A DNA stretch of 15,512 nucleotides from a virus. Lineage: Duplodnaviria > Heunggongvirae > Uroviricota > Caudoviricetes. The stretch is from IMG/VR virus record IMGVR_UViG_2617270964_000015. The stretch is one strand, 5' to 3'. Positions 1-15,512 of the stretch are shown here, piece by piece. Position numbers and translations under genes: made by a program. The notes below the pieces were generated by a model that made no database searches, was not told where the DNA came from, and saw nothing but the letters and a program-made list of their open reading frames with translations. Positions within the stretch are counted from its first letter, which is position 1. Each line of letters opens with the position of its first letter.

Positions 1-375
1 GACGAACAGTGGGGCTATGTCGGGGCTAAATCGCGCCAGCGCTGGCTGTTTTACGCGTATGACAGTCTCCGGAAGACGGTTGTTGCGCACGTATTCGGTG
101 AACGCACTATGGCGACGCTGGGGCGTCTTATGAGCCTGCTGTCACCCTTTGACGTGGTGATATGGATGACGGATGGCTGGCCGCTGTATGAATCCCGCCT
201 GAAGGGAAAGCTGCACGTAATCAGCAAGCGATATACGCAGCGAATTGAGCGGCATAACCTGAATCTGAGGCAGCACCTGGCACGGCTGGGACGGAAGTCG
301 CTGTCGTTCTCAAAATCGGTGGAGCTGCATGACAAAGTCATCGGGCATTATCTGAACATAAAACACTATCAATAA
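1..375 (+). CDS. insB: IS1 transposase InsB reading frame, 5'-truncated by the window edge
   Basis: Open frame from base 1 to TAA at 373-375; the ORF track reports the internal ATG at 109 (88 aa) but the frame is open from base 1 and matches InsB throughout. IS1 transposase is made as an InsA-InsB fusion by frameshifting, so an independent start is not expected. Confidence 0.85.
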
Positions 376-390
376 GTTGGAGTCATTACC
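1..390 (+). mobile_element. IS1: IS1 insertion sequence, 3' portion (element continues beyond the left window edge)
   Basis: Frame-1 translation from base 1 reads [44 protein letters not shown]...HYLNIKHYQ, which I recognise as the C-terminal part of IS1 InsB. Stop TAA at 373-375 is followed by the IS1 right terminal inverted repeat atcaataagttggagtcattacc at 368-390. Left end and any target-site duplication are outside the window. Confidence 0.9.
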
Positions 391-1257
391 GCCAGTTAGC
401 GCGCCATTTACACGTATTTCTATATTTTTCTCAGATTCAGAAAGCAGAGATATTATTCTTTTTGCACAGAGTTCGTCTATTTCATATAGATTCATTATTT
501 TCTTACCAAGAACAAACTCAATTTTTACAGGCAAGTCTTCAAAACTATTAATCATCTGATCGTCATTTTCATCATAAATCTCACTCTCGTTTTTTTTGAT
601 ATCAAAATCATCTGTTTCAAAATCTTCCTCGTACTCAAAATGATCAGCCATTTTTAACTCCTCTGGATAAATTAAATCAAAAATTTTTGTATTATAAATA
701 ACCGCATAAGCCAAATTATTTGAGATTAATAAAACATCACCAACTTCAATATCAACAAGACTTCTGTAACATGTTTTACTAAATCCAATTACAAAATGAA
801 TGGAGCAATATAACGATTTTTTGTCTAACGCTGGAGCGTTTCCGTATTGGCAGACTGTGACTTTATCTAACCAAAGATTCAATTCCCCTCTCCATATTCT
901 TATTAGTGGTTGAGCAGGGCTCAATACTCCATCAAATACTTTACCTACGCGCAAACGATTATATTTTAGTTCAGGATGCTTTAGATTTAACGGGGAACTG
1001 GATAAACTGAGCCATTCCCCTATTAACCTTTCCGTTTCTGGCATCAAAGCCATCCCAGCGAGCTCAGATGAAATTAAGGGAAATATTTCTCCAAGCAATA
1101 CCCATCCAGACCAGCTGCCACTCTCTTCTGCTATCGGTAGCCATTTAGCACTAAATTCGGGCATTAATAATGCAACATCTTCGCCATTTTCTTTCCAATT
1201 TTGAAAAGTGGTTTCAAACGTATGAGTGTTTCGATTTACTTTCCTCAGACCGAACAT
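391..1257 (-). pseudogene. Type III secretion SctQ/FliN-like protein with SpoA domains, 3' end cut by the IS1 insertion
   Basis: ATG at 1257-1255 with an AAGGA-like RBS upstream. The translation contains two SpoA-like segments, LVDIEVGDVLLISNN and DLPVKIEFVLGKKIMNLYEIDELCAKRIISLLSESEKNIEIRVNG, the second aligning closely to the FliN/SpaO C-terminal SpoA domain. The ORF-track frame (310..1257) continues into IS1 sequence, so the last ~27 codons are IS1-derived and the native C-terminus is lost. AT-rich by eye. Confidence 0.45.
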
Positions 1258-1388
1258 TAACTTTCATCCTTCTGATCGTTTTCGAATTTGCTTTCATTTT
1301 CTTGCTCCTCATAAGGCTGATGTCGTTGTCCTTGTCGTTCATCTTGCTCAGTCAATACCCAACGTTGTGCTGTAACTCATTATGAAAA

Positions 1389-2999
1389 CTATTTAATTCC
1401 CTCATCATTGATAAGATTGGACATCTCTTTCAACATGAGAGTCATTGAAGCTTTCGACCAATTTAGCGGAATGATAGGGCTTGGCGCTTCATGCAAAGTT
1501 CCCGACTTGTGGATATAGTTATAGCTTTCGGGAAGTGCCATTTCTGGTACGCTCCTGCCATTTGCACCAATCATATTCTCGCCTGTTATTTGGGCCAATG
1601 ATCTATTCATAAATTGCACTGAGTCATTCAAATACTCTTCTTTTCTTGATTCTTTATAAACAATTGCTGCTGATTTTGCATACCATGAGTCAAAAAACCA
1701 TTCTGCTTCTGTTGATGGAATGAAGCTCTTTTCTCTTTTCACATGTGAATTTTGATCGGTATCGGTTTTAATATCATTGAACCAAAAATTTGCCGACTGA
1801 TAATTATCCTTCTCGTATCTTTTTATACCATACGGACCTGCTAGTTTTTTAACTATTTTTAGAACCTGCTCTTTTCTTCTGGTGTTTATCTTTGCAAGAT
1901 TTGCAGGATAAATAACATTAAGTAAAGCCGCATCGGCTTCTCTGTAATGTTTATCTTTTTCCAGATAACCTGGGGATTCTCCCCCTAAATCAAGCTGTAA
2001 CGTTATTCTTTCATAACCTTTATCTATGAGGTGGTTCAACCTCGTTGTTGAAAGAGGTTCATCCAGTTCATTGGCTTTAGCTTCGCGTAGTAAATCAGAG
2101 ACAAAAACAGAGTCTTTCTTCGAGAGTAAGTTCGACAAACGTTCCAGTCCAGAGGTCACCAGTGCAACGGAAGATGTGTTTAATCGGGCATCTTCTTCCC
2201 ATGCTCCGGAATCTTCCATAACATAGAAATTGGCTTTATCCAGATAAGCAATCAGCAGCGCAACCGATTTTAATCGGTCACCTTTTTGCCAATCTTCAGC
2301 GTTAATTGTACCAGTGTCGATTGCTTGTATAAGGAGATCAAGATAAAGACCTAACGCATCATTTTGTTTATGGTTCCACAGCTGCGGCTTGCCTTCTTCC
2401 TGCACATCTGCCATCACGGGGAAGTTGCTGTCAAATCGGATATGCACAGCATTCATTTGCCCGGGAACTCCATCCAGTCGTTTGGGGTTGCTAATGACGT
2501 CCTGCATCCGCTTAATCTGGTCGGGCGTAGACATATAATCCCACAGGGTGAGCAGAACCTTTTTTGCGGCTACACTATTTCCCTGATCTGATACTAATGC
2601 CATATAGCCCCATAAACTATCCCTCAGCCAGACAGCATCATAGTGGGTTTCTGCCGCTGTTTTGTCATCTTCGAAAGTAGAAGCAAGAATAAATGTTCCC
2701 CAGGGTTTCTCCGTCAACGTTAACTTTCGTGTGTTTTCTGTTAATGTTAACAACCCTTGAATTTCGTCTTTGGTATAGTGGCTCTTTATTTCATTTTTTA
2801 ATTTGGCTGAGTGAATCAGAAGACGATAATTAGGGTACTTATCTGGATTTAACGATAAATAACTTTTATCTGTTGCTGCCCCCGTGGAATTAAGAATGTT
2901 AAATACAGATTCACTCGTCACTTCTGCCCCTGTCGCCTGGCATGTGCCGCACGAAAATATACCAGCGAGCAGAAGAGTTAATGCAGATTTCCCTTTCAT
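1389..2999 (-). CDS. Glycoside hydrolase family 15-like (glucoamylase-like) exported protein or lipoprotein
   Basis: Long ORF (track 1389..3041 begins at a GTG). The ATG at 2999-2997 gives MKGKSALTLLLAGIFSCGTCQA, a signal peptide with a possible lipobox cysteine. Internal DSGAWEED resembles the GH15 catalytic-region signature (S-G-x-W-E-E). AT-rich gene. Confidence 0.6.
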   Translation of the reverse strand: MKGKSALTLLLAGIFSCGTCQATGAEVTSESVFNILNSTGAATDKSYLSLNPDKYPNYRLLIHSAKLKNEIKSHYTKDEIQGLLTLTENTRKLTLTEKPWGTFILASTFEDDKTAAETHYDAVWLRDSLWGYMALVSDQGNSVAAKKVLLTLWDYMSTPDQIKRMQDVISNPKRLDGVPGQMNAVHIRFDSNFPVMADVQEEGKPQLWNHKQNDALGLYLDLLIQAIDTGTINAEDWQKGDRLKSVALLIAYLDKANFYVMEDSGAWEEDARLNTSSVALVTSGLERLSNLLSKKDSVFVSDLLREAKANELDEPLSTTRLNHLIDKGYERITLQLDLGGESPGYLEKDKHYREADAALLNVIYPANLAKINTRRKEQVLKIVKKLAGPYGIKRYEKDNYQSANFWFNDIKTDTDQNSHVKREKSFIPSTEAEWFFDSWYAKSAAIVYKESRKEEYLNDSVQFMNRSLAQITGENMIGANGRSVPEMALPESYNYIHKSGTLHEAPSPIIPLNWSKASMTLMLKEMSNLINDEGIK

Positions 3000-3306
3000 A
3001 AAATATTCCATCAATCGTTTGTTAAAAGCGTAGATAACCACTTATTTAACAACTTGAAAATAAGGTGTTTTACCTGGGTTGTTACAAAAGGATTGCATTG
3101 CGTAAACGCTTTTTATTTACAACAAAATGGGGAAATATTACGGCGATTGCGAAAAGTCTGAAGCGATTGAATTAAGATAATATAGAAAATCAGATACAGC
3201 AAAAATGGCAGATTGATGAGGCGAAGATAAATTGGAGCGGCGAAGGGAACAATACAACAAGCAACAAGACCAGTAATAAAGGCACATTCTCGAGTTCTAA
3301 AATAGA

Positions 3307-3328
3307 TTCTATACACATTTCTATACAC
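3307..3328. repeat. Near-tandem 10-bp direct repeat ttctatacac x2 (2-bp spacer) in the AT-rich upstream region of the GH15-like gene
   Basis: ttctatacac at 3307-3316 and again at 3319-3328. Confidence 0.5.
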
Positions 3329-3830
3329 GTTTATCACTCGCTTGGGGATTACACATCCCTGTTATCCGTGATCAAGCTGGTGGCGTTCCTGTTGCAGCAC
3401 AACGGAAACAGGTAGTGAACATCCGTTAAGTTTGCTTGCTGGTTACCGGGTTGAAATGGGTTAGTAGGGGGAGCGGTACGCATTCCACGTATCGGTTTCG
3501 TATCCGGTGGATGTTCTGCGTACTTTTTTGCACAAGACCAGTAATGGCGGTCTTTCCGCTGGTACGCACTTTTCTTTTTGCGTACCACTTTTGCGCACTT
3601 TTTCAAGGTCGGATCACAGATTCCCACCATTATGGGACCAGTTGAAGGGGCCGAACAAATCAATAGCTGTGGTGGTATCGTTTTGCATGTCAGGTTTTGA
3701 CAGGTTTTTATGGACTCCGAAAACTCACTGCACCAGATGCGCAATACATCGCGCTCATTTCGTTAACTAACGTCGCGCGCGTACTTGTCGCAAAATGTCG
3801 CAATTTTGCGTTATCGGGAATATCAGCAAG

Positions 3831-4115
3831 TTACCGCCGCAACCGTTCCGGCTTCTTCCAGTGGTAAGTAATTTTCTCCTTTTCCCGATGCATCTCCACG
3901 CGGCGACGGTATGCCAGCAACCCGAGAACTTTGGTGCGTATGTTGCGCATATCAACGCCGTTAAGCTCGATACCATCGCGGCGCATCACCTCAGCAACAA
4001 CACGCGCGTAATTTTCAGCGGTCACGCTGTCCGGCTGCGTGGCCTCCTGTGTGCCTGTAGCCTGGCTGATTCCGGTAATACTGCGGATTATCCCGAGCAC
4101 TTCGGCTTCAGTCAT
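3831..4115 (-). CDS. Hypothetical protein (~94 aa)
   Basis: Minus-strand ORF; ATG at 4115-4113 lies 8 nt downstream of a GGAGG Shine-Dalgarno (on the coding strand). A second in-frame ATG is at 4121-4119. The longer ORF-track start at 4364 would overlap the upstream lipoprotein gene. No recognisable motif. Confidence 0.35.
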   Translation of the reverse strand: MTEAEVLGIIRSITGISQATGTQEATQPDSVTAENYARVVAEVMRRDGIELNGVDMRNIRTKVLGLLAYRRRVEMHREKEKITYHWKKPERLRR

Positions 4116-4203
4116 TGTCATGGCCTCCGTAGTGATTAGGGGAGTGATGCTGTAATTGTGGCTGCTGGATCCTAGAAGGTGAAGCAGCCTACCAGCACAA
4201 TGT

Positions 4204-5256
4204 TTAGTACCCTCGAGCAGAGTAGACACGGGCCATTCCTGCCCAATGCGAAAACAGGATTTCATACTTGACTGGATTGTAATTAATGCTGCCATCCAGG
4301 GCGGCCGCATTCCATGCCCCGTCTGAAATAGTACGGTCGCTGGCTGTTTTCCCCCACTCGACAATGCTCCTCGCTATGCCCTGAACACATGCGCGATTTA
4401 ATGCCGTCTCACCAACATATGCCCCAGCGTCTGAACATGACTTCATACTCAGATCCAGGCTATTCCTGAAAAATTCCAGCCCGGCAATTGACATAAACCA
4501 GCGACCATTAGCGTATGCCACGCCATCGTTTCTTATTGTGAATTTAATAGTGTGCAGAGCATCAACAATCATCTGTTGCTCAGCTGTTGGATTCTGCCAT
4601 AACACGAGATCAATCGTTTTTTCAGAAGCCTTAGACTCTTCTTTCTCACGCTTGATGCGTTCGTCACGTTCAGCCCGGTATCGCTTTTGGTTTTCGTTAC
4701 GTAACTTCTGGTATTCAGAGGCGAGCTTATCCCGTTCCTGTGCAAAAGTAGCCAGACTCGTTTTAAAATCGCTTTCGTTGACTGTAACAAGCCCCATGCT
4801 CCAGCGATCATTTCCATAATCAGTATAGATAGCGTCAACTTTTGCCGGATTGCTCAATGCTATGGCTAGGTTAACCAGAATCTTCGAGGCTTCCTCACCA
4901 GTTTTGGAGCTATTGTCAAACCTGGATAGTTCCCCGACTCCATTGCCCCCATATTCATGGTAAGCAGCGTAAAACACAGGGATTGTCTGAGGTTTACTAT
5001 TAACCGCCTGGATAATACTTTTATCGTCGCACGTCAGCCCGTCCCACTTAAAGAGACTGCCACCACCGCTTTTGTATGCCTCACAATCATCGATACCCAG
5101 ACGAACCAACGCAGTCCAGCCGGGGCGCTTCTTATACTTGTCGCTTTTGGCGATATGCATTTGTGTTAACGCTTTTGCGGGATCGATCTTCCCCGCGGTG
5201 CAGCCTGTGAACATTAACGCCAAAGAGGTTAAAGCAATGCGATTGATTAAATTCAT
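4204..5256 (-). CDS. Putative lipoprotein with a central coiled-coil segment
   Basis: ORF 4204..5289; the internal ATG at 5256-5254 gives MNLINRIALTSLALMFTGCTAGK, an N-terminal signal with a lipobox-like cysteine. The middle is rich in charged residues (ERDKLASEYQKLRNENQKRYRAERDERIKREKEESKASEK), typical of coiled coil. Start at 5289 is also possible. Stop TAA at 4206-4204. Confidence 0.6.
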   Translation of the reverse strand: MNLINRIALTSLALMFTGCTAGKIDPAKALTQMHIAKSDKYKKRPGWTALVRLGIDDCEAYKSGGGSLFKWDGLTCDDKSIIQAVNSKPQTIPVFYAAYHEYGGNGVGELSRFDNSSKTGEEASKILVNLAIALSNPAKVDAIYTDYGNDRWSMGLVTVNESDFKTSLATFAQERDKLASEYQKLRNENQKRYRAERDERIKREKEESKASEKTIDLVLWQNPTAEQQMIVDALHTIKFTIRNDGVAYANGRWFMSIAGLEFFRNSLDLSMKSCSDAGAYVGETALNRACVQGIARSIVEWGKTASDRTISDGAWNAAALDGSINYNPVKYEILFSHWAGMARVYSARGY

Positions 5257-5335
5257 TATCCTTGTGTCCAGAGTTAGGTCGACCGGCATAGCTTACCCGT
5301 GGAGAAATGAATCGTCGAATGAGTTTGGTCGGGAG

Positions 5336-6007
5336 TTATTCCACCAGCAAAAATGGCGTTGCCCGGTCAATAACGTTGATGCCAATTAACGAGCTAACAT
5401 TGCGACCATTCACAATGCTATCCCGTTCAAGCAAATGCGCTATTTTTTCTACTTCATACCAGTATTGAGCCATGAGGGCTTTGGTCTTTTCAACGAGTTT
5501 AGAAAGCATTAACTCCCTGTTAATTCGCTTATCTGTAGCGCAGATTAAATCGAGCATGTCATTTACGTTAGCCATGTCATAGCGATGAGGCAGCGAATAC
5601 TTTTTGTTGAAAATATCGTTGTTTTCGTAAAGGGCTTCGCTTACTGGTCCGGCGAGGGATACAAAAGCGGCCTTTATTGCATCGCGCTTTATACCATCCG
5701 CATAGTAACGTATGAAAGGGATAACTTTACCATCCCGCCCAACTACACCAGATTTACTATCCCGCAAACGCCCGAGATCGTGGCTGTGAATTATGCTGTG
5801 TTTAACAACGCCCAAACACTTGGCCTCATGTACATGTTCGCCAGCAACGTAACCGTATTCATCCATAACGGCGATAACCTGTACATCTAAGCGAATAAGC
5901 CATGCAGCTACTGCATGGCCCGCTTCGTGGAATGCTACACATCGTTTACCATCGCCTATCCAGTTATAGAACATTTCCTGCTCATATATCTGGTGAATGG
6001 CGCCCAT
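5336..6007 (-). CDS. Stand-alone FtsH/peptidase-M41-like HExxH zinc metalloprotease domain protein (no AAA ATPase domain)
   Basis: ATG at 6007-6005 overlaps the upstream stop (TAATG). The translation carries CVAFHEAGHAVAAWL, with the HEAGH codons at about 5914-5928 on the minus strand, resembling the FtsH protease-domain zinc motif (HEAGHA). Downstream SLAGPVSEALYEN and NVNDMLDLICATDK resemble later FtsH protease-domain segments. At 223 aa it is too short to include an ATPase module. Confidence 0.6.
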   Translation of the reverse strand: MGAIHQIYEQEMFYNWIGDGKRCVAFHEAGHAVAAWLIRLDVQVIAVMDEYGYVAGEHVHEAKCLGVVKHSIIHSHDLGRLRDSKSGVVGRDGKVIPFIRYYADGIKRDAIKAAFVSLAGPVSEALYENNDIFNKKYSLPHRYDMANVNDMLDLICATDKRINRELMLSKLVEKTKALMAQYWYEVEKIAHLLERDSIVNGRNVSSLIGINVIDRATPFLLVE

Positions 6008-6183
6008 TACGCGCCCTCGCTTGCCAGTGAGGCCAGAGCCTTAGCCATGAGGCCGCGGGCAATCTGGTGAACGGTGGGAGCGACGCCGAGATTGGAGCGC
6101 TGGCGTTCACGTTCCTGAATGTTGCGTATGGCCTGCATCTGCTCGGCGGACAGCAGGACCGGCTTAACGTTTGGCTTTCTCAT
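6007..6183 (-). CDS. Small basic protein (~58 aa), translationally coupled to the protease-domain gene
   Basis: The ORF-track frame 6007..6276 begins at a TTG (6276-6274, shown as M). The ATG at 6183-6181 gives MRKPNVKPVLLSAEQMQAIRNIQERERQRSNLGVAPTVHQIARGLMAKALASLASEGA; an ATG at 6207-6205 is also in frame. Stop TAA (6009-6007) overlaps the downstream ATG. The true start is uncertain. Confidence 0.35.
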   Translation of the reverse strand: MRKPNVKPVLLSAEQMQAIRNIQERERQRSNLGVAPTVHQIARGLMAKALASLASEGA

Positions 6184-6358
6184 TCTGTTCACTCCAGAAC
6201 CGTGCATTTGATTCGTTGAGTTGCTGCAGGTTGCGACTCTGGCGATCGAAGTTATTGCGTGCCTTTGCCGCTTCAAGATCCTGACGGGTCAGCATCGGGC
6301 GGTGGGCGCGCTGTGGGTTGCCTGCGGCTAATTTCGGGTCATAGATAGGCATGCTCAT
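6164..6358 (-). CDS. Small hypothetical protein (64 aa)
   Basis: ATG at 6358-6356 sits 6 nt after the stop of the 183-aa gene and is preceded by AAAGAG. The 3' end overlaps the start region of the 58-aa ORF in another frame by about 20 nt. Confidence 0.4.
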   Translation of the reverse strand: MSMPIYDPKLAAGNPQRAHRPMLTRQDLEAAKARNNFDRQSRNLQQLNESNARFWSEQNEKAKR

Positions 6359-6364
6359 ATCTCT

Positions 6365-6916
6365 TTAGTGTTTTTTGCCCCAGAAGGTGGCGTTGTCAGC
6401 ATTGATGCTGCGGATTGCGTCTCCTGTAGAAATTATTTTCGGAGCGATATTGTTTGCTTTCATGTAGTCGCCAACCTGCTCGAGTATATCGATAGCCTGA
6501 TCCAGCTGGATTTCTGACATTGGGGTAGGGTGTACGGCGCTGAACGCCTCAGCAGGGGCGTAGCGCAGCACATCGAGCGCAACGATGCGCGGGTCGGCGT
6601 CGGGCAGTGCTGAATCGTATTTCGGCGCTACGGCACGTACCAGACGCATGAACTCAGCATTCATTGCTATCGGTGCCGTGGAAGTAGCAGACGTGCCATT
6701 CAAACCGCGGGAAATCATATCACTGTCGCGGGTGTACATGCGGCGCAGGCGGTCGCCGGTGGCGATGCGCATTTTGCGTTCTTTCTCGAGTGTCGTTGCA
6801 AGACTTGCAATGATGGTCGCAACGGTTCCGCTGCACTGGAACTCCTCTTTACTGCCGTCGGCATACGTCACCACGCCATCTTCGCCAGTCACGGCGATGT
6901 TTGTAATATCTTTCAT
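6365..6916 (-). CDS. Hypothetical protein (183 aa), first gene of a four-gene cassette
   Basis: ATG at 6916-6914 with GAGG 8 nt upstream on the coding strand. Stop TAA at 6367-6365. No motif I can assign. Confidence 0.6.
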   Translation of the reverse strand: MKDITNIAVTGEDGVVTYADGSKEEFQCSGTVATIIASLATTLEKERKMRIATGDRLRRMYTRDSDMISRGLNGTSATSTAPIAMNAEFMRLVRAVAPKYDSALPDADPRIVALDVLRYAPAEAFSAVHPTPMSEIQLDQAIDILEQVGDYMKANNIAPKIISTGDAIRSINADNATFWGKKH

Positions 6917-7030
6917 CGGTCAGACCTCAGTATGTTCTATCGGATATTTATGTTTCATTATACGCAATAATGATATTTATTGTTGCAATTATTGCAATGT
7001 GTTTTTCTTGTGATAACATGCAAATTGAGG
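6917..7030 (-). promoter_or_regulatory. Promoter/operator-like region upstream of the 183-aa gene
   Basis: AT-rich. A perfect TATAAT on the minus strand (plus-strand attata at 6957-6962). Two adjacent palindromes: caataa-tgatat-ttattg (6965-6982) and ttgcaat-t-attgcaa (6983-6997). The best -35 candidate, ttgcaa, lies 20 nt from the -10, which is too far, so exact promoter geometry is unresolved. Confidence 0.4.
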
Positions 7031-7087
7031 TCAGAACTCAATGAGTTGGTTCCAAACATGGTTACTGGTACACAAAAGCCCGTGCGT

Positions 7088-7115
7088 CTCCAGCGCGGGC
7101 TTTTTACTGGCACAA
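7088..7115 (+). terminator. Intrinsic terminator-like hairpin (plus strand), A-run before and T-run after
   Basis: gcccgtg / cgcgggc stem (7 bp with one G-U pair), 9-nt loop, followed by ttttt at 7111-7115 and preceded by aaaa. Confidence 0.45.
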
Positions 7116-7123
7116 AAAAGCCG

Positions 7124-7147
7124 GGAAAAATCCCGGCCTCCGTCACT
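7124..7147 (-). terminator. Rho-independent terminator of the ProQ-like/PerC-like operon
   Basis: Minus-strand reading: stop TGA of the PerC-like gene, then gccggga-tttt-tcccggc (perfect 7-bp GC-rich stem, 4-nt loop; plus coordinates 7130-7147), then tttttt (plus-strand a-run 7124-7129). Confidence 0.65.
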
Positions 7148-7430
7148 GACTGCAATTTTTCGATCCAGGGTATTTCCTGAATGCCTTACCATTGGGCTGA
7201 TGTAATCCCATCCCGGCATGTGCCCGGCTGATGGTTTCGCGCATCTCCCCGAAATTATCCTGCCTTGCTGGTGGGCGTGCTGCCTTGTGGATACATTCCG
7301 CACGACGCTTTGCCGCCTGTTCCCGTGCCTTGTCATCATTCGCCAGCATGATGACCTCAGCCCACCGCGCCGCCGCTCTCCGGTACAGGCCACGCGCTTC
7401 CAGTGCTTCCGCTTTGCTGTCGTGAATCAT
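7143..7430 (-). CDS. PerC-family-like small transcriptional regulator (95 aa)
   Basis: N-terminus MIHDSKAEALEARGLYRRAAARWAEVIM matches my recollection of the PerC-family N-terminal signature (AE-LE--G-YRRAA-RW-EV). ATG at 7430-7428 overlaps the upstream stop (ATGA, 7427-7430). Confidence 0.5.
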   Translation of the reverse strand: MIHDSKAEALEARGLYRRAAARWAEVIMLANDDKAREQAAKRRAECIHKAARPPARQDNFGEMRETISRAHAGMGLHQPNGKAFRKYPGSKNCSQ

Positions 7431-7969
7431 GCGCCTGTTTTCTCCCTGGCTGCCCGGCGCTGGCGTTTGCGCTTCTCATTCAGCGCCACCAGCCGCGTTT
7501 CTGCCTCCTGCTGTTCCTGTGGTGTCACTTCCCCACATGGCTGGCCTTTCAGGTCGTAGCGTCCCCCACCAGCCATTAAGGCGCGGTAATAGCGCGGACA
7601 CTGCGCATAAGATGCCAGCGTCGCACGTAATGCCCCTGGCCCGAATGCCAGCCCCCTGACGGCGAGATCCTGCATCAGGTCGTCGAATATCCCCACCTTA
7701 AGCGGCTTCGGTGCTTCCCGGCTGAATAATTCAGGCCACAGTTCGATAAGGCGGTTAACGCGTCTGCGGTTTTTGCGCTGGCGTTTGGTCATATGCCGCC
7801 ACGGTGTCGCCCCTGTGGGCTTCTGCTGCGCTTTCTGGTTATCGGGCATCACTTTATGCGCCGATGTGGTTTTATCCTGCTCCTGTGCCGCCTGCGTCGT
7901 TTTCTGCGGCGTGCCGTAAATGCCTTTAGGTTTTCTGTTAATGGTCAGCTTTGTCATGCTTTGCCCCAT
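7427..7969 (-). CDS. ProQ/FinO-family RNA-binding protein
   Basis: PLKVGIFDDLMQDLAVRGL...YRALMAGGGRYDLKGQPCGEVTPQEQQEAETRL parallels the ProQ N-terminal FinO-like domain as I recall it (PLKIGIF-DL, RYL, R-DL-G-PCGE) and is followed by a basic tail. ATG at 7969 or at 7957-7955; the latter has GGGG 6 nt upstream. Confidence 0.7.
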   Translation of the reverse strand: MGQSMTKLTINRKPKGIYGTPQKTTQAAQEQDKTTSAHKVMPDNQKAQQKPTGATPWRHMTKRQRKNRRRVNRLIELWPELFSREAPKPLKVGIFDDLMQDLAVRGLAFGPGALRATLASYAQCPRYYRALMAGGGRYDLKGQPCGEVTPQEQQEAETRLVALNEKRKRQRRAAREKTGA

Positions 7970-7974
7970 CGTTA

Positions 7975-8312
7975 CAACTGTCTACCAACTGTCTACTGAT
8001 ATAATTTATTGATTTATTTCATATTATTCACACATGAATAAAAAACAACCTATCAACTATCTACCAACTGTCTACCGCATTAATGCATTGATAATTAATG
8101 ATTTTTACTAAATGGTAGACAGAGTAGACAGTTAAAAGAGAAATTTTAAAAATGAACCCTTAACTATCTGTTTTTATATACCCCCCGTGGTTTAGGAATA
8201 TAGAAACAACTGTCTACTCTCTACCACATTTAAAAATATCTATACAATTCAATGTATTAATTGGTAGATAGTTGGTAGAGGGTTAAGTATTACTGTCTAC
8301 CAACAGTCTACC
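7975..8312. repeat. Iteron array: about 12 copies of a 10-11 bp motif CAACTGTCTAC(C) in six tandem pairs, both orientations; putative replication origin
   Basis: Direct pairs at 7975-7996 (caactgtctac x2), 8054-8075 (caactatctac + caactgtctac), 8207-8226 and 8292-8312. Inverted pairs at 8114-8133 (ggtagacagagtagacagtt) and 8262-8280 (ttggtagatagttggtagag). AT-rich stretches lie between pairs at about 8000-8050 and 8135-8200. The array sits directly 3' of the primase gene. Confidence 0.6.
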
Positions 8313-8339
8313 TTTACGTTTCAGCTTATAAATTTCGTA

Positions 8340-10145
8340 TTATGTTCTGTCGTTAATCCCTGTTGCTGCTGGCAACCAGCCATCAGCATCATCATCTAAC
8401 AGAACATTTGTTATCACTCGCCCTTTATCCGGGCCTTTAGTGCATTTAGCCCGCTTATACTCCTTTCCGTATTCCGCCATAGCACCCGGCATATCAGTGC
8501 CAAAGCGTTTCAGTGATACTGGTTTTCCCAGACCATGCGCTGACATATAGGCTAAATAAGCATGATACAGATATCGCCTCGGGCTAAATGGCACTATTCC
8601 CGCATTACCCACCATCATTCCTTCACATTTAACCAACGACATCAGATATCCGCAAAAGTCCACCAGTGAATCACCCTCACGTTTTATCACCAGAGCCTCT
8701 TCTGATTTCTGCTGCTCATATAACAGACGTCTGGCTTCATCCTGGTCAGAAAAACGAGTAAGCAGGTGGCGAATCACTACCGCCAGTTCGCCTTCTATTT
8801 TTTCCACCAGCATGGGATCGCGTTCGTTCTCCGGTACGACCTCAGAGAAATTAAATATCACCCTACGACGCGAGATCCCCCCGCTTCGGTCACTGAATGA
8901 CATGGCGTTATTGTTTACTGCCAGCACTACCGCCGGAATACGAGTGGAGTATGGGGCTTTATGTTTCGGGTCGATCGCCACCTTGTCACCACCAGTAATT
9001 GCCTTAATTCCTGCACCATCACCAGCGTAGCGGGTCATATCCGGCATGATAATCAGCGAAAAGCCAACGACTAACGCGCGTTCCCTTGCGTCTTCCAGCG
9101 CCTTCATGCTTGCCGATACTGTATTGGCCTTACCCGCCAGCATGGTACAAATCTCCGCCATCACACTTTTACCGCTTCCGCCCGGCCCCGTTACCTCAAG
9201 GAATAACTGCCAGTCGTACCGGTTCGCCAGTACCATGAATAATGCCGCCAGTACGCGATCTGCTTTACGATCGTTATTTGCCACCGAACGACGCAGCCAC
9301 TTCCAGAAATTCGGCGCATGTGTTGCCAGTGTTTCCCCCTCTGCTGGTGGGCTGAACGGTAATTCACTGGCATTTAACAACCAGTCATTTTTGTTATGCT
9401 CCCGAAAATTTCCTGTCCGGGTATCAAATACCCCGTTACTGAATCCAATAAGATTCCTGTCTGCCCCGCCCATAACAGGCAGGCTCAATTTCATTGTGTC
9501 TACGGCAAATTTAATGGCGTTTTGCGAATAACTGATTCCAGCATCAATAAAAATCTTCGCCATAGACCGCTGGAGTTCCTTATCAGATACAGGCTCCCAG
9601 ACAATTCCGTTGTAATGGTGAACTACATCAGAATCGTCATTTATAGCCAGTGCCCTTCCATAATATTCAAGCAATACTTCCCCTCTCTGGCTGGCTCCCA
9701 TCTGATTTAGTGCTGGCCTGGGTAGGTCACTATTTTTTGTGACTAATTTCATCGCTGAAACTTCCCCGCGCTCTGCCTGTTCGCGGATCCGTTGCAGGTA
9801 ATCGCGCCAGTTCTCCGGCTCCCGGTCGGTGATGCCTTTGTATAATTTCGCCTCCTGTACGCCAGCCAGTGCCAGTTTTTCAGCGATAGCATTGATCTGG
9901 ATTGGTTCGATCTCCCCCGCGAGATAGACACGCGCAAAGCGGCGTTCATCGTCGACAATGCGGATATTCGCCAGGTCTGCCAGTTGCTTTGGCCCCAAGT
10001 AAACAGGTGGTACGTTATCGCCGTGCTTCCGTCCTTCGCTTTCAATCCAGTGTTGAGCATGGGAGTAAGCATCCGTCCCGGCAAAAATGATTACCTCAGT
10101 GAATTTATCCTTCGGCTGATATTTCAAATTCGGTGCGTTTTTCAC
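8340..10145 (-). CDS. P4-family phage/plasmid primase-like replication protein with P-loop NTPase module
   Basis: 601-aa ORF with Walker A GPGGSGKS. Overall resemblance to satellite/PICI primase-replication proteins is from memory only. Start is GTG at 10145-10143 with GGAGG just upstream, overlapping the upstream gene's stop (GTGA). Stop TAA at 8342-8340. Confidence 0.8.
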   Translation of the reverse strand: MKNAPNLKYQPKDKFTEVIIFAGTDAYSHAQHWIESEGRKHGDNVPPVYLGPKQLADLANIRIVDDERRFARVYLAGEIEPIQINAIAEKLALAGVQEAKLYKGITDREPENWRDYLQRIREQAERGEVSAMKLVTKNSDLPRPALNQMGASQRGEVLLEYYGRALAINDDSDVVHHYNGIVWEPVSDKELQRSMAKIFIDAGISYSQNAIKFAVDTMKLSLPVMGGADRNLIGFSNGVFDTRTGNFREHNKNDWLLNASELPFSPPAEGETLATHAPNFWKWLRRSVANNDRKADRVLAALFMVLANRYDWQLFLEVTGPGGSGKSVMAEICTMLAGKANTVSASMKALEDARERALVVGFSLIIMPDMTRYAGDGAGIKAITGGDKVAIDPKHKAPYSTRIPAVVLAVNNNAMSFSDRSGGISRRRVIFNFSEVVPENERDPMLVEKIEGELAVVIRHLLTRFSDQDEARRLLYEQQKSEEALVIKREGDSLVDFCGYLMSLVKCEGMMVGNAGIVPFSPRRYLYHAYLAYMSAHGLGKPVSLKRFGTDMPGAMAEYGKEYKRAKCTKGPDKGRVITNVLLDDDADGWLPAATGINDRT

Positions 10146-10432
10146 TTCTTACCTCCCGCAACCAACATTGCCCGGATTTTTTTAATATTCGTGGCTGCAC
10201 GTCTCGCCACTGCCTGTTGTTTGTTTTCAAGCAGAATAAAATCACGCTCAAACTGACGGCGCGGCATTACGCAGTCATATTCGTAAGCCTCACGGCGGTA
10301 GGTGATATTGCCTGGCGTAACGTGACGAATAACCACTCGTCCCCCACGCCTGGTGTCGCGGTAAATATCTCCGTGTCTGATTTCAGGTCGAGAGAGGCCG
10401 CTGGCAGTAAAGCCAGAATTTTTCTTTTTCAT
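10142..10432 (-). CDS. Hypothetical basic protein (96 aa), translationally coupled to the primase gene
   Basis: ATG at 10432-10430; stop TGA overlaps the primase GTG start. Lys/Arg-rich, no motif assigned. Confidence 0.5.
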   Translation of the reverse strand: MKKKNSGFTASGLSRPEIRHGDIYRDTRRGGRVVIRHVTPGNITYRREAYEYDCVMPRRQFERDFILLENKQQAVARRAATNIKKIRAMLVAGGKK

Positions 10433-10485
10433 GGTTTTATTTTCCTGTCAGCAGTTCCGGTTTTATTTCCGCACGAATACAGAGT

Positions 10486-10638
10486 TCAGAAAAAAAATTC
10501 AGGAGAACCAACAATCTCATTACTTTTCAGTCGGCATTGTGATTTCACTTTCCCTTTATCCAAGTAAACCAGCACGCGTCCGGTGAAATCATCTGGCACA
10601 CTCAGGGTAATTGTCATTGTTGCTTGCTGATTATCCAT
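10486..10638 (-). CDS. Small ORF (50 aa) carrying the third copy of an FTG repeat unit; likely the out-of-frame 3' part of the upstream gene
   Basis: ATG at 10638-10636 lies immediately after the homopolymer. The translation MDNQQATMTITLSVPDDFTGRVLVYLDKGKV... repeats the FTG-x-LV unit found twice in the upstream ORF. Confidence 0.3.
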   Translation of the reverse strand: MDNQQATMTITLSVPDDFTGRVLVYLDKGKVKSQCRLKSNEIVGSPEFFF

Positions 10639-11000
10639 GATTCCCCCCCCCCCTGAATAACCTGATAACCGCAACTGGTCAGCAATTCGATAAATTCCGG
10701 CAATGTGCCGAAACAGCAATCATCACGCAGACGTTCGCGGGATACCTCAACGTCGTTTTCATAATGGCTCACCATGCGTCCGGTAAAATGCAAATCATCA
10801 TCGTGATGGCACGTTGACGGTTTAATCAGTCGCGCACGCTCTGCCAGTTCCAGCAATGCTTCAACACTTCCGGCAATTGCACCATCCGGCAGGTGGTAAT
10901 TACGCACTATGCGCCCGTTCTCCACATGGACCAGTAGCTGCCCGGTAAATTTCTCGTCAAACTGAATGCGGTTAAGGTCGGTAAGTGACAGGTTAATCAT
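10614..11000 (-). CDS. Hypothetical protein with two internal repeats (128 aa as read), ending just after a G11 tract
   Basis: ATG at 11000-10998 overlaps the upstream stop (ATGATTAA). Repeats DEKFTGQLLVHVENGRIV and DLHFTGRMVSHYENDVEV. C-terminus ...VIQGGGESWIISKQQ is encoded across the homopolymer. Confidence 0.5.
   Translation of the reverse strand: MINLSLTDLNRIQFDEKFTGQLLVHVENGRIVRNYHLPDGAIAGSVEALLELAERARLIKPSTCHHDDDLHFTGRMVSHYENDVEVSRERLRDDCCFGTLPEFIELLTSCGYQVIQGGGESWIISKQQ
10643..10653. repeat. Homopolymeric tract C11 (G11 on the coding minus strand) inside a coding region
   Basis: ttcccccccccccctg; eleven consecutive C at 10643-10653. Confidence 0.9.
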
Positions 11001-11358
11001 GGCGCACCTCCTGGCGAATACGGGCGGCGAATACCATCACGCAGCCATCAGGAGATTGCTGGCGTGCTTCCTGTTCGCTGGTGGCCTCGATGTGAATCAC
11101 GCGCGGTTGTGCCGTACTCAGGGCGATAAAACGCCAGATAGAATTGTTTTCGCATTTCTGAATAAACAGCGTGTTTTCTTCGCGCCCTTTCCATGTTGCC
11201 GAGATATAGCCCATGTCATTGAGCATCTCGCAGGCATCCACCAGCGTATCAGCGGCTACGTGTACAGTGTTTTTACCGTCAGCTATGCAATCACGGTGCA
11301 CCGCCAGGAAGGTGTATATAAATTTAGGGTGAGTTTGGGTATGCTGTGTTCCAGCCAT
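10993..11358 (-). CDS. Hypothetical protein (121 aa), first gene of the primase operon
   Basis: ATG at 11358-11356 with GAGG upstream on the coding strand. This is the 3' third of the 382-aa ORF-track entry 10993..12141, whose upstream part crosses the divergent regulatory region and a plus-strand gene. Stop overlaps the next start. Confidence 0.5.
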   Translation of the reverse strand: MAGTQHTQTHPKFIYTFLAVHRDCIADGKNTVHVAADTLVDACEMLNDMGYISATWKGREENTLFIQKCENNSIWRFIALSTAQPRVIHIEATSEQEARQQSPDGCVMVFAARIRQEVRHD

Positions 11359-11557
11359 AATCGTTACCTCGTTTAACGGTTTGGTTAGAAGCCCCGTTAC
11401 TGCTCCAACAGTGCGGGGCTTCGTTGTTTCAATTGCTGAATTGCATGTATCAGCCCTTGTGGTATTCAGATTACATTTTGGTGAATACCATTTCAAGTCT
11501 TTTTTGGTATTCACTTTTGTATTACACTGCATCCCGTTATTAATCGGAGGTGCAAAC
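11359..11557. promoter_or_regulatory. Divergent intergenic control region with hairpin and GGTATTCA operator-like repeats
   Basis: Stem-loop gaagccccg-(17 nt)-cggggcttc at about 11390-11425. Three copies of GGTATTCA / TGAATACC at about 11460-11516, one inverted. GGAGG at 11546-11550 precedes the ATG at 11558. Confidence 0.45.
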
Positions 11558-11863
11558 ATGTCCACGAGTTCTGTTAACAATAAGTCACAGCAACTGAATG
11601 CCAGATTTCCACATGAAGTAGTGAGTGGCATTGAGGCATCCCTACAGCCAGGGGAAACTAAAGCGAATTTTATAGTTACGGCTGTACGCGGTGAGATCGC
11701 CCGCCGCCAGGCAGAAGGAAGCGGAGAAAACCCCCTAGTTTCTTCGCTCGATGCGCTGGCGCAGGTGGAAAAAATCGGTGTCAAAGCTGCCGAGGAGATC
11801 GGGCAACTCGTCACCGTCGCGCGTGAAGAACTCCAGCGGCGCAAGGCCAAAGAACAGGAGTAG
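11558..11863 (+). CDS. Ribbon-helix-helix (Arc/MetJ-type) DNA-binding regulator, 101 aa
   Basis: ATG at 11558 seven nt after GGAGG; the ORF-track start at 11381 is unlikely because it crosses the control region. QQLNARFPHEVVSGIEA then ANFIVTAVRGEIARRQ fits the beta-strand-helix-helix pattern of Arc-like repressors. It is the only confident plus-strand gene inside the element. Confidence 0.55.
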   Translation: MSTSSVNNKSQQLNARFPHEVVSGIEASLQPGETKANFIVTAVRGEIARRQAEGSGENPLVSSLDALAQVEKIGVKAAEEIGQLVTVAREELQRRKAKEQE

Positions 11864-12087
11864 TTGATCAGCACCGGGCAACCAGAAAAAATCGTATCAG
11901 TTGCGCCACCAGCAAATTTTTTTGCTTTCCGGACGACGTTGCCAACGGCATTTTGCAGCAAAATATTCCGCATTTCTGGCGTACTGTAGTAACGGTGATC
12001 AGCGCCTTCACTCTGTGCGACCACAACGCTATAATCTGCCTCGTAGACAGTAAGCAATATAGCGCAGTAGAATATTCGTTCACAAAG

Positions 12088-12119
12088 GCGCTCCGGCAAC
12101 GGGGCGCTTTCTCTTTTTG
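12088..12119 (+). terminator. Intrinsic terminator-like hairpin, plus strand
   Basis: gcgctcc-ggcaac-ggggcgc (7-bp stem with one G-U pair, 12088-12107) followed by tttctctttttg (12108-12119). It lies about 225 nt past the stop of the plus-strand regulator gene and about 27 nt past the stop of the convergent minus-strand gene. Confidence 0.5.
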
Positions 12120-12133
12120 TAACGGTCAGAGCG

Positions 12134-12982
12134 TTACACATGGCTGTTTTCCTCCATGCGACGGGCTAACCAACGCTGCGAAAGACGAATTAATTCAGCT
12201 TTCCGCTGGTGGTAGTCCTGGCCTAACTCAATCAGCGTGATATTGCTCTGCTCAAGGTAAGAAAGGTGCTCAAGCTGCAACGTGCTCATGTGGTCGCGTG
12301 GTTCGCCTGTAATGCCGTTCGCCTGCGCCCACTGTTTTGCAGTCATGCCACCCAGCACGATACGCGCCAGCATATTGGCTTCCGTGGTGTAGTGGTGCTG
12401 GAGTGTGTTTTTACCCAGCTCAGCCCGGTATGCTTCCAGCGCGGCGCACATCGGCTTAAAGTAGCTGGCAACGGTGATACGGGCTTTCAGTTCCCGGCGT
12501 AACGCTGCGGAACGCACTGGCGCTACCTTGTGTAGCTCCTCCTCGCATTTGATGAAGTACTGACGAACGGCACGGCCCTGTTCGGTGCGTTCGACCATCG
12601 CCAGTTCTTTTGCCATGTTCGTGGAGATCAAATAGTCTTCACTGCGACGATCACCGCCGCGCTTTGTTGTCCAATCAGAATCAAACTGTTCAATATTTAC
12701 ACTTTGGTTCCCCCGTTTCGGGGAATCAAAGTACAAATTTTCTACAACTTTAAAATCCACGCCATTTTTAAATCCGTACTCATCAATACGTCCTTTAATC
12801 CAGGTAGTGAAATCACGGCCTCCCCCGAGCGCCTTATGCAACGCTCTGGCGCTAACAATATTGGTTTCACGCCCGCCAATAACGCCGGAAATAACCGGGA
12901 TAATTTCGCCGAAATTTTGCAGATTCTGGTTTTCAGGCCGAACTAAGCCCTGCCCCTGTACGGGCGTTTTTCGCTGTTTCAT
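12134..12982 (-). CDS. AntA/AntB-family phage antirepressor-like protein
   Basis: ATG at 12982-12980 with AGGAG 5 nt upstream. N-terminal region ARALHKALGGGRDFTTWIKGRIDEYGFKNGVDFKV ... MAKELAMVERTEQGRAVRQYFIKCEE matches the AntA-domain pattern I recall (DF-TWIK-RI--YGF, AKELAMVER--G---RQYFI-CE). Confidence 0.65.
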   Translation of the reverse strand: MKQRKTPVQGQGLVRPENQNLQNFGEIIPVISGVIGGRETNIVSARALHKALGGGRDFTTWIKGRIDEYGFKNGVDFKVVENLYFDSPKRGNQSVNIEQFDSDWTTKRGGDRRSEDYLISTNMAKELAMVERTEQGRAVRQYFIKCEEELHKVAPVRSAALRRELKARITVASYFKPMCAALEAYRAELGKNTLQHHYTTEANMLARIVLGGMTAKQWAQANGITGEPRDHMSTLQLEHLSYLEQSNITLIELGQDYHQRKAELIRLSQRWLARRMEENSHV

Positions 12983-13059
12983 AAAAACTCCTGCTAACGA
13001 ATTAAGTTACTTTTATTTGCTGGTGGATAGCTGGGGCTTCTGGCCCCGTAGCCATTTAA

Positions 13060-13260
13060 TCAGGTAGCTGTTCCGCGTGATTCCGCAATACGCTGATTAA
13101 TCCACTCGTCAATTTCACTCTCAACGAAAGCAATAGCTCGCGAGCCAATTTTTACAGGTTTAGGAAAACTCCCTTGGGCAATGAGTTTATAGATCCATGC
13201 CCTTCCATAGCCTGTACGGCGCATGGTTTCTGACATACGAATTAAATTTTGCTTATCCAT
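13060..13260 (-). CDS. alpA: AlpA-family transcriptional regulator / excisionase-like HTH protein
   Basis: MDKQNLIRMSETMRRTGYGRAWIYKLIAQGSFPKPVKIGSRAIAFVESEIDEWINQR matches the AlpA family (small HTH protein ending -EIDEWI-QR). ATG at 13260-13258 has AGGAG 6 nt upstream; the ORF-track start at 13305 is less likely. It lies downstream of int on the same strand, as in P4-like and PICI elements. Confidence 0.75.
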   Translation of the reverse strand: MDKQNLIRMSETMRRTGYGRAWIYKLIAQGSFPKPVKIGSRAIAFVESEIDEWINQRIAESRGTAT

Positions 13261-13317
13261 ACACTTCTCCTGATGCATATAAAAGTCTGTTTCTGGAATA
13301 TACACAAGAGAAGGATG

Positions 13318-13380
13318 TATTTTTTAAATTAAATATTAAAATTTAAATTAAATACAATTTAATTCAATTTAAATAATTTT
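13318..13380. repeat. AT-only low-complexity repeat (AATTTAAAT-type units) spanning the 3' end of the cargo gene and the alpA upstream region
   Basis: ttttttaaattaaatattaaaatttaaattaaatacaatttaattcaatttaaataatttt, with multiple overlapping direct and palindromic AAATT/AATTT units. Confidence 0.6.
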
Positions 13381-14267
13381 CTGTACTCCTCTGGGATAAC
13401 CAAGCGGAAATCATCTTTTGTTTCCACTCCTGTTTTGCCAATTCCTTCTGAACAAAGAATATTTCTAATTGTACCTACTTTAGGCGTATTAACAGCATCA
13501 ATAGAATAAAGCAAGGAGTGTATTTTATTGATAATTAATGTCGTATGGCTCCACGGATAAGAAATACGAGTAGCTTTCGCTACATCAACAATAACATTTC
13601 GATAGATATTTCTAGGCTTACCCACCATTTTGTTAATTGTTTCGCAACTACGTGAATTCACCCCATCCATTTTACTTTTAATAAAATCGGGATACTTTTC
13701 CATAGATGATTTGACTTGGTTTAATCTCCAATTTATTGTCACCCCACCATTTTTAAGCAAAAATAATTCACTTTTAGTTATAACTAAATCGCTTGTTTTA
13801 ATATTTATACCGCCATTAATTAAAATTACTCGTGGGTTATAATCCTCCAAGTTATAGTGCGTAAAAGATGGAAGCCTCACTGGATATAGCCTATCAACAA
13901 CAAATTCTTTTACGTTATCAAAATCAGCATCCATCTTAAAAAGATTGGATATTCGGACAGAAAAAAGACCACAGGCCTTAATGACTTTTCTATGTTTTAA
14001 CTTTCCATTAGATTCGCAACTAATAACTTCACTTATTTTTGCATAGTTAGAGCGATGTCTGAATTTTTTACTTCTTGTATTAGAAAATATTTCTTTATTA
14101 AATTTACCACGAACAGAGACCCTTCCTTCTTCAATAAGCTCTGACAAATCTATATTTATTGCTACATCAACCATTCCGATTGATATATAGTGAAATAAAT
14201 CATAAACATCTCTATTTATCTCAAAAGCTGCTTTATTCAGAGTGTAAAACAATCTTTCAGGAAGCAT
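13359..14267 (-). CDS. Hypothetical AT-rich cargo protein (302 aa) between int and alpA
   Basis: ATG at 14267-14265 with AGGTGA upstream, only about 30 bp after the integrase stop. Uninterrupted 302-codon ORF in clearly AT-rich DNA (by eye about one-third G+C, against about half in flanking int and alpA). Asn/Ile/Lys-rich; no catalytic motif I can name. Confidence 0.6.
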   Translation of the reverse strand: MLPERLFYTLNKAAFEINRDVYDLFHYISIGMVDVAINIDLSELIEEGRVSVRGKFNKEIFSNTRSKKFRHRSNYAKISEVISCESNGKLKHRKVIKACGLFSVRISNLFKMDADFDNVKEFVVDRLYPVRLPSFTHYNLEDYNPRVILINGGINIKTSDLVITKSELFLLKNGGVTINWRLNQVKSSMEKYPDFIKSKMDGVNSRSCETINKMVGKPRNIYRNVIVDVAKATRISYPWSHTTLIINKIHSLLYSIDAVNTPKVGTIRNILCSEGIGKTGVETKDDFRLVIPEEYRKLFKLN

Positions 14268-14297
14268 GATATCACCTATATAAGAATATCAATGTAA

Positions 14298-15512
14298 TCA
14301 ATCTAATTTTTCAGATTTTATGTAAACAACGTTTCCGCCATGCTCAAGCGAATCCATATAGTCGGCGTACCACTGGAGCATTTCCCGGCGACCATCCAGA
14401 TATTGCGCATGGTTGTATGTGCCACGAATTGAGTTTTTATCGGCGTGCGCAAGCTGTGTCTCTATCCACGCGGTGTTATAGCCCTGCTCATGCAAAATGG
14501 TGCTCATGGTGTGCCGGAATCCATGACCAGTAACGCGCCCGGCGTAGCCAATACGACGAATGAGCACATTCATTGCCATTTCACTCATTGGCTTACTGTG
14601 GTGAATACGACCGGGGAAAATAAACTGATACTGGCCTGTCATGTTTTTTAACTGCTCCAGTATTTTTATCGCCTGTTCTGGTAATGGCACACAATGCGGA
14701 CGGCGCATCTTCATTCGTTCTTTAGGCACTTCCCACAAACGATTATCAAAATCGATCTCCCGCCATTCTGCCTGCCGTAATTCCCCGGGTCTGACACCTG
14801 TCAGAATTAATAGCCGCATTGCCAGTTTGACGATCTGGCTTCCGGTGTACGTATTAAAAACGCGGAAAAATTCCGGCAGTTCGTCGGCCTTCAGATAGGC
14901 GTAATGCTCTTTTTTATGTGGAGCAAATGCGCTCACCAGGTCAGGGGCTGGATTATATTCGGCGCGTCCGGTGATGATTGCGTACCGGAACACCTCGCCA
15001 CATCGCTGGCGAACCTTACGCAATTTTTCAGTCGCACCACGGTCATTAAGACGGGAAAGAACCGCCAGCAATTCCATCGGCTTAATTTCTGCGATCGGCC
15101 TACCGCCAATGTACGGAAAAACATCTTTTTCAAACGTCTCGATCATTTCCTCGGCGTATGACGATGACCACCTGTCGATCCGCTTTTCGTACCATTCGCG
15201 AGCGATACCCTCAAAAGTATTGCCAAATTTGCTCGCCTGTTCTCGCTTTTGGGCTTTTCTGGCCTCACTTGGATTTATACCACCAGCAAGAAGCCTTTTA
15301 GCCTCATCCCTTGCCGCCCTGGCATCAGACAGAGACACATCAGGGTACACACCCAACGACAACATTTTGGGCTTTCCTGCAAACCTGTAGCGCAGTCGCC
15401 ACCCTTTCGAACCGTTCGGCTCAATGAGCAACGAAAGCCCGTTACCGTCATTGAGTGTATAAGCCTTTTCTTTCGGCTTCGCGCGCCTGATGGCAAGGTC
15501 TGAAAGCAGCAT
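14298..15512 (-). CDS. int: Tyrosine recombinase, P4-type phage integrase
   Basis: ATG occupies the last three bases of the window (15512-15510). N-terminus MLLSDLAIRRAKPKEKAYTLNDGNGLSLLIEPNGSKGWRLRYRF is the P4-integrase arm-binding signature. C-terminal catalytic region GHGFRHTMSTIL ... LAHADKNSIRGTYNHAQY carries the R/HxxR/Y residues. Upstream promoter and att site are outside the window. Confidence 0.85.
   Translation of the reverse strand: MLLSDLAIRRAKPKEKAYTLNDGNGLSLLIEPNGSKGWRLRYRFAGKPKMLSLGVYPDVSLSDARAARDEAKRLLAGGINPSEARKAQKREQASKFGNTFEGIAREWYEKRIDRWSSSYAEEMIETFEKDVFPYIGGRPIAEIKPMELLAVLSRLNDRGATEKLRKVRQRCGEVFRYAIITGRAEYNPAPDLVSAFAPHKKEHYAYLKADELPEFFRVFNTYTGSQIVKLAMRLLILTGVRPGELRQAEWREIDFDNRLWEVPKERMKMRRPHCVPLPEQAIKILEQLKNMTGQYQFIFPGRIHHSKPMSEMAMNVLIRRIGYAGRVTGHGFRHTMSTILHEQGYNTAWIETQLAHADKNSIRGTYNHAQYLDGRREMLQWYADYMDSLEHGGNVVYIKSEKLD

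Follow-up and report, generated by a model that had tools for sequence, protein, structure and literature searches.

An IS1A end at codon 289 of epaO in a degraded ETT2 locus of Escherichia coli

The window (the whole 15,512-nt stretch of DNA analysed here) opens inside an insertion sequence, and the program-made list of its open reading frames holds a minus-strand frame of 315 aa, 310..1257, that begins in a secretion-system gene and ends in that element. The locus raises the questions of which gene was hit, how much of it is left, how the element came to lie there and whether its arrival was what silenced the secretion system, as an earlier note made from the letters alone had proposed. The window almost certainly holds ETT2, the “second” type III secretion island of E. 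coli, in a common degraded form, further damaged by an IS1A that abuts codon 289 of epaO. This is ordinary, already-known biology, in which only the exact breakpoint is new. The features on which this reading is based are collected in Table 1.

Table 1. Features of the window discussed in the text, in order of position
Feature	Position	Strand	Basis or remark
IS1A 3' part (IS1 nt 379-768)	1..390	+	100% identity over 390 nt to annotated IS1A in L012
IS1-derived tail of the chimeric ORF, 26 codons + stop	310..390	-	artefact of read-through into IS1, non-native
IS1 right inverted repeat (IRR), terminal 23 nt, element end = 390	368..390	+	identical to IRR of complete IS1A copies in L011, L012
epaO (ETT2 SctQ), codons 1-289 of 315, 3' end gone	391..1257	-	NF006018; 289/289 residues identical to W5-6; 99.9% nt identity
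Truncated SPOA2 (FliMN_C, PF01052), residues 239-289	391..543	-	Pfam profile 3-51/73
Candidate internal start for short EpaO-C: GAGGAG (663-658), 6-nt spacer, ATG (651-649) = Met203	649..663	-	read from sequence
SPOA1-like segment, residues 144-192	682..828	-	best PDB match 4yx5_A; limits from PMC4443714
eivJ (SctP/SpaN family) 3' remnant, 39 codons + stop, 120 nt	1257..1376	-	stop overlaps epaO start (TAATG)
Ancestral ETT2 deletion junction (eivJ 5' part through eiv genes)	1376..1384		9 nt common to both sides
GH15 gene (full-length ygeQ-type), flanks ETT2 on glyU side	1389..2999	-	RefSeq annotation of identical locus
att-distal cargo ORFs (3349-6916)	3349-3744, 4204-5289, 5336-6007, 6365-6916	-	no convincing Pfam match

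The end of IS1 and the gene that it interrupts

The left part of the window was compared by BLAST and by direct sequence comparison with the complete 768-bp IS1A of E. coli OkiPb01684, whose nucleotides 379-768 equal window 1-390 at 100% identity; a second IS1A, from strain C3728, is 99.5% identical to the same part. The insB reading frame occupies 1-375 in frame 1, with its stop codon at 373-375. The matches to this part are underlain by IS1A/IS1B transposase annotations, and the partial gene product predicted on the source contig has PF03400 (DDE_Tnp_IS1) on record. In reverse complement, the segment 368-390 (ATCAATAAGTTGGAGTCATTACC) reads as the right inverted repeat of IS1, GGTAATGACTCCAACTTATTGAT. 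Two hallmarks of IS1, the coding sequence of its transposase (InsB, DDE_Tnp_IS1) and a terminal inverted repeat of ~23 bp, are present. In a four-way alignment that included the uninterrupted allele of strain W5-6 (L001), native epaO restarts at 391 with GCCAGTTAGCGCGCC, and everything to the left of 391 is IS1. The edge of the right inverted repeat, which the earlier note had put at 390/391, is exact to the base.

The interrupted gene belongs to the SctQ family, whose members are sorting-platform (“pod”) proteins, as had been suggested from its letters for the family. The truncated product matches NCBIfam NF006018 (YscQ/HrcQ) with E=7e-130 and 432 bits (cut-off 223) over profile positions 3-278 of 303, and TIGR02551 (SpaO_YscQ, SctQ) with E=2e-45 and 156 bits (cut-off 100.8), so that the assignment holds at the level of equivalog profiles for the whole protein. 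Nucleotides 391-1257 are 99.9% identical to a locus annotated YscQ/HrcQ in many E. coli genomes. The gene order agrees with this identity, since epaO lies between sctP and sctR, with the eivJ remnant upstream and, in uninterrupted alleles, epaP (EscR/YscR family, FliP domain) downstream, a place that is taken by IS1 in the window.

The intact W5-6 allele (L001:2920-3867, minus strand) encodes 315 aa and is identical to the window product over residues 1-289, that is, over every one of the 289 residues attributed earlier to the native part. It goes on for 81 nt beyond the break, its last 26 codons being YGELVEVDDKLGVEIHSWLSGHNNVK, after ...NGALTG, and these 81 nt are the missing 3' end that an alignment to intact homologues had been expected to recover. 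The native gene does not stop at the break, and, given the SctQ profile matches, neither of the findings that would have overturned the earlier reading was obtained. In the window, codon 289 (GGC) is the last native one and codon 290 (GGT) already the first triplet of the IS1 end; the frame then runs through 26 IS1-derived sense codons to a stop, which together make up the 27 codons of IS1 first counted there. The length of the chimeric ORF, 315 codons, equals that of the intact gene by chance. The tail consists of the IS1 end read in reverse complement and shows no resemblance to the strands that were lost.

The break lies inside the C-terminal SpoA domain, where it had been placed before. 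Pfam FliMN_C (PF01052) matches residues 239-287 of the truncated product from 3 to 51 of its 73 profile positions; in the intact W5-6 allele, which also spans NF006018 from 3 to 303 of 303, the match extends from 3 to 72. Residues 243-309 of the intact allele match the SPOA2 crystal chains of Salmonella SpaO (4yx1 and related entries) with E=1e-14, and the break maps after position 50 of the 70-residue SPOA2 chain in 4yx1. Two SpoA segments had been noticed in the frame. The second one is clear, and the first is weak when taken alone: residues 1-206 have as their best PDB match the SpaO(145-213) SPOA1 chain 4yx5_A (residues 144-192) with E=0.035, and this segment falls within the full-length family profile match. 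With FliMN_C cut and the last 20 of the 70 SPOA2 residues gone, the gene is classed here, on its sequence, as a truncated SctQ member, i.e. an IS1-truncated epaO pseudogene.

RefSeq (PGAP) labels epaO as “frameshifted” even in the absence of IS1, with a start 40 nt upstream and in another frame (1257-1297; L001 3867-3907). This frameshift was considered as a true lesion and rejected, because the ATG at 1257 opens an uninterrupted 315-codon ORF in the intact allele. The SctQ profile match of that ORF sets in at profile position 3, and the start codon shares bases with the stop of eivJ (TAATG); gene calls on other assemblies likewise give 315 aa for epaO. The label seems to be spurious and to stem from a reference protein with an extended N terminus.

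The ETT2 setting and an older deletion

Matches to the stretch 391-1400 occur in 3,212 E. coli chromosomes, of which 921 reach an identity of at least 99%, and at least 80% of the stretch is carried by 3,145 genomes. The matched loci are annotated as YscQ/HrcQ, a SpaN/EivJ remnant and a glycoside hydrolase of family 15 (GH15). In W5-6, homologues of epaP, epaQ, epaR and epaS (SctR, S, T, U) lie beyond epaO, and the GH15 gene, tRNA-Gly and actS lie on its other side; the position beside the tRNA-Gly gene glyU and the SPI-1-like epa/eiv order are those of ETT2. RefSeq annotates the stretch identical to the eivJ remnant in W5-6 and in strain L37 as “SpaN/EivJ ... incomplete, missing N-terminus”. 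For the GH15 product, an exact record exists for the 536-aa ATG form, with a weak PF00723 match, and the exact-product look-up returned no record for the GTG-extended 550-aa ORF.

The eivJ remnant is joined straight to the end of the GH15 gene. A BLAST comparison with strain 08-00022, which has a fuller ETT2, aligns 1151-1384 with L010 3761-3995 and 1376-1600 with L010 7729-7953. The span lost between these two blocks, as it stands in 08-00022, contains the remainder of eivJ, other T3SS genes, sctN (ATPase) and a fragment of FHIPEP (SctV), in addition to an AraC-family fragment and a GhoT/OrtT toxin gene. Judged from this comparison, the ancestral deletion would have taken the ATPase, export-gate and secretin genes. 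Of the 5,426 complete E. coli genomes, 1,939 (~36%) have the same eivJ/GH15 junction as one unbroken stretch, the best matches being 100% identical. The junction corresponds to the large “right-end” deletion isoforms of ETT2 (PMC11068852), a class in which 5-8.7 kb are deleted at the right end (PMC11068852).

Two events can be put in order by parsimony. The deletion is found in ~36% of genomes and the IS1 junction is private to one contig, which argues that the deletion came first. In this ancestral step, the stretch from the 5' part of eivJ to the GH15 gene would have been removed, leaving 120 nt of eivJ; with the loss of the eiv genes, among them those for the ATPase SctN and the export gate SctV, no injectisome could be built. 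Much later, and in this lineage only, IS1A would have reached epaO in its 3' part, whether by DDE transposition into the G+C-rich patch GCCAGTTAGCGCGCC or through a later IS1-mediated deletion. We infer that the IS1 event was recent and strain-specific, and that ETT2 was probably already non-functional before it, IS1 having truncated a gene that was left over. The earlier description of the locus as a secretion-system remnant inactivated by IS1 thus stands as to the remnant and fails as to the cause, since the older eiv deletion (1,939 of 5,426) preceded the element.

The remainder of the window, 3233-15512, consists of an integrative element that occupies tRNA-Gly (glyU) as its insertion site. 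The match to strains lacking the island stops at 3233-3249, where 17 nt repeat the tRNA 3' end imperfectly (TGGAGCGGCGAAGGGAA, with one G missing). ARAGORN finds no tRNA inside the window and the intact tRNA must therefore lie beyond it. A P4-type tyrosine integrase (Arm-DNA-bind_3, Phage_int_M and Phage_integrase) occupies 14298-15512 on the minus strand, the window ending at its start codon, and between the tRNA copy and the integrase Pfam recognises AntA, DUF4222, D5-type primase, ProQ/FinO and PerC genes. Related islands at the same site in other E. coli reach up to 87% coverage and 97% identity. The att-distal cargo ORFs lie in the kind of place that satellite-like islands use for accessory or defence genes. 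PADLOC returned no defence-system match among seven ORFs of the glyU island, and ORF 5336-6007 shows sub-threshold matches to HExxH-type peptidase motifs and is called “peptidase M41” in relatives by RefSeq. Rfam gave no match over the whole window, and promoter and terminator consensus matches in 1-3400 occur at the same level as in shuffled sequence.

The arrival of IS1 at epaO

The window is contained in the draft contig JHDG01000151.1 (GCA_000601135.1, 46.8 kb), with 100% identity over the 12,999 nt compared. To the left of window position 1 this contig has just two more bases (tg), so that it stops 392 nt inside IS1. The IS1/epaO junction is known from this one draft contig, which is reported in two samples. 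A search with a 121-nt junction probe did not detect the junction in any of the 5,426 complete E. coli genomes; where 80% or more of the probe was covered, the match either came in two pieces, with IS1 elsewhere, or belonged to another junction. The right IS1/epaO junction was likewise not found in the species-representative genome collection or in the metagenome collection, and the exact-product look-up gave no record of the chimeric 315-aa product. Because the contig stops within IS1, a simple insertion and an IS1-mediated deletion are not separable in this sequence.

A simple transposition, which would have placed a complete 768-bp IS1A in epaO between the copies of a 9-bp (or 8-bp) duplication starting GCCAGTTAG, has about an even chance of being the correct account. 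The junction is the exact terminal base of the IRR, and independent events of this kind are seen nearby with clean duplications. In OkiPb01684, an IS1A identical to the window copy lies inside epaO, flanked by the 9-bp duplication CTCCTCTGG (L012 1768-1776 and 2545-2553), and in C3728 an IS1A in the 5' part of epaP is flanked by the 9-bp duplication TAAACGGCA. A transposition of this type predicts another contig that reads ...CAAGTTCTCCATAGCCAGTTAG joined to GGTGATGCTGCCAACTTACTGAT, with the 81-nt 3' end of epaO and epaP-epaS behind it. The IS1 left end, however, is outside the visible sequence, the contig stopping in IS1, and the predicted left junction had no match in the two collections, a result that is uninformative given that the right junction is absent from them too.

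An IS1-mediated adjacent deletion, or a recombination between two IS1 copies, is given somewhat less than an even chance; it would have removed the epaO 3' end together with part or all of epa/epr. Nothing within the window speaks against it, and the L37/WCHEC050613 lineage, of ~15 complete genomes, underwent such a deletion 3 bp from here. In L37, WCHEC050613 and ~13 other complete genomes, an IS1 of another isoform lies in the opposite orientation, its IRL being joined to AGTTAGCGCGCC and its far end abutting the yqeH side without a duplication, which indicates that most of ETT2 is deleted there. WCHEC050613 has a second IS1 in epaO, likewise without a duplication. The two junctions are nevertheless distinct: native sequence restarts with AGTTAGCG in L37/WCHEC050613 and with GCCAGTTAGCG in the window, and the former is a demonstrable deletion junction in which the IRL of a 92.6% identical isoform faces epaO, whereas in the window it is the IRR that faces the gene.

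Hits of IS1 in this part of ETT2 are recurrent. In other genomes, same-orientation copies lie, by their record spans and assuming collinearity, ~128, 309, 378, 454, 529, 748, 975, 1019, 1050 and 1065 nt past the window site; at least 10 distinct IS1 positions within ~1.1 kb of the window site are represented among 23 complete genomes. The epaO stretch has a G+C content of 35%, with GCCAGTTAGCGCGCC as its only G+C-rich patch. IS1 reportedly favours A+T-rich DNA and duplicated targets bounded by G or C, and GCCAGTTAG would fit this pattern. That the GCCAGTTAGCGCGCC patch is a true IS1 target hot spot, and IS1 a main driver of the erosion of the left half of ETT2, nevertheless seems unlikely to us.

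The two IS1 isoforms at this site (92.6% identical) have their ends 3 bp apart in epaO, in opposite orientations and in unrelated lineages (391-394; L003 2514-2540; L002 2501-2530), which could reflect a local hot spot or a coincidence. On the glyU side, an IS1 left end is located 35 nt from the GH15 gene in L005 (331-353; GCA_000714135.1), so that IS1 landed between glyU and ETT2 in another lineage too. The identical GH15 protein is encoded on contigs of 10-20 kb (~30 index blocks; L005-L009 are siblings), and those examined begin beside GH15.

An assembly artefact, in which the contig end would have been misjoined to a collapsed IS1 repeat while the real epaO is intact, is very improbable. 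The IS1 part does sit at the extreme end of a short-read draft contig, but the break sits precisely where the IS1 terminal repeat ends, as transposition predicts and a random misjoin does not; the contig was reported in two samples, and a contig that runs into a repeat and then stops is the usual signature of a real IS copy. Weakest of all, and scarcely credible, is a native gene end near the break or a functional EpaO-IS1 chimera, for which the intact length of the 315-codon ORF might speak. The native end was rejected because the intact alleles examined add 26 codons that complete both the family profile (3-303/303) and FliMN_C (3-72/73), and the replacement tail, an IS1 end in reverse complement, is unlike the lost strands.

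Consequences for EpaO and comparison with known systems

In Salmonella, the N-terminal peptide of OrgB (SctL) is bound by a surface made up jointly of SPOA1 and SPOA2 of SpaO, and the SpaO-OrgB interaction is required for localisation and for secretion (PMC4443714). SpaO(1-219) gives no complementation of a spaO deletion, and a stop placed behind codon 219 of spaO abolishes secretion (PMC4443714). A short SpaO product also exists, given in PMC13059759 as the “C-terminal 101 residues”. In the window, Met203 of EpaO stands where SpaO has its internal Val203 GTG start and YscQ its Met218 (PMC4443714), and it is, by this analogy, a candidate internal start that would yield a short EpaO-C product. 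The 9-bp duplication in OkiPb01684, CTCCTCTGG, is the Shine-Dalgarno sequence of this candidate start.

The truncation would affect both forms of the protein. The full-length product, and any internally initiated EpaO-C, would lose the last 26 residues, which comprise the final ~20 of the SPOA2 fold and a short tail, and would gain 26 unrelated residues encoded by IS1. The loss of the end of SPOA2 and the unrelated tail should prevent the module from folding, in the long product as in any short one. The truncated EpaO is expected to be non-functional, because Salmonella SpaO needs its SPOA2, which pairs with SPOA1 and forms part of the OrgB docking site. With the eiv genes already gone, the truncation of epaO would have had no further effect on secretion.

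The locus leaves what is known of T3SS and of IS1 unchanged, being one more private lesion in a long-documented decay (PMC11068852). Its value lies in annotation: the 315-codon ORF at 310-1257 should be recorded as an IS1-truncated epaO pseudogene, not as a protein, and the ETT2 of the source strain should be scored as an eiv-deleted, non-secreting isoform.

Regarding its component parts, the locus is close to known systems in each. From IS1A (768 bp, IS1 family) it has the 3' end of insB and the 23-nt IRR, at 100% over 390 nt, and it differs from the complete 768-bp element in that window and contig hold the right half only. The SPOA2 domain of epaO and the weakly matched SPOA1-like segment before it are placed as in Salmonella SpaO. 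Compared with the intact EpaO allele, the window copy is the same over residues 1-289, but it is without the last 26 residues and has 26 IS1-derived codons instead. The eivJ-epaO-(epaP) synteny is kept, with epaP replaced by IS1 in the visible sequence. That ETT2 decays through deletions, frameshifts and IS elements is well documented (PMC11068852); in strain F2_18C, IS1F is reported to have inserted into eivG (PMC6985150), and Ren et al. 2004 are cited for widespread ETT2 attrition in PMC6985150. The window is of the same kind as these documented “mutational attrition” isoforms, with the same island and the same lesions, a right-end deletion and an IS insertion, and it differs from them in its IS1/epaO breakpoint, which is private to it when set against the 5,426 complete genomes (0 of 5,426).
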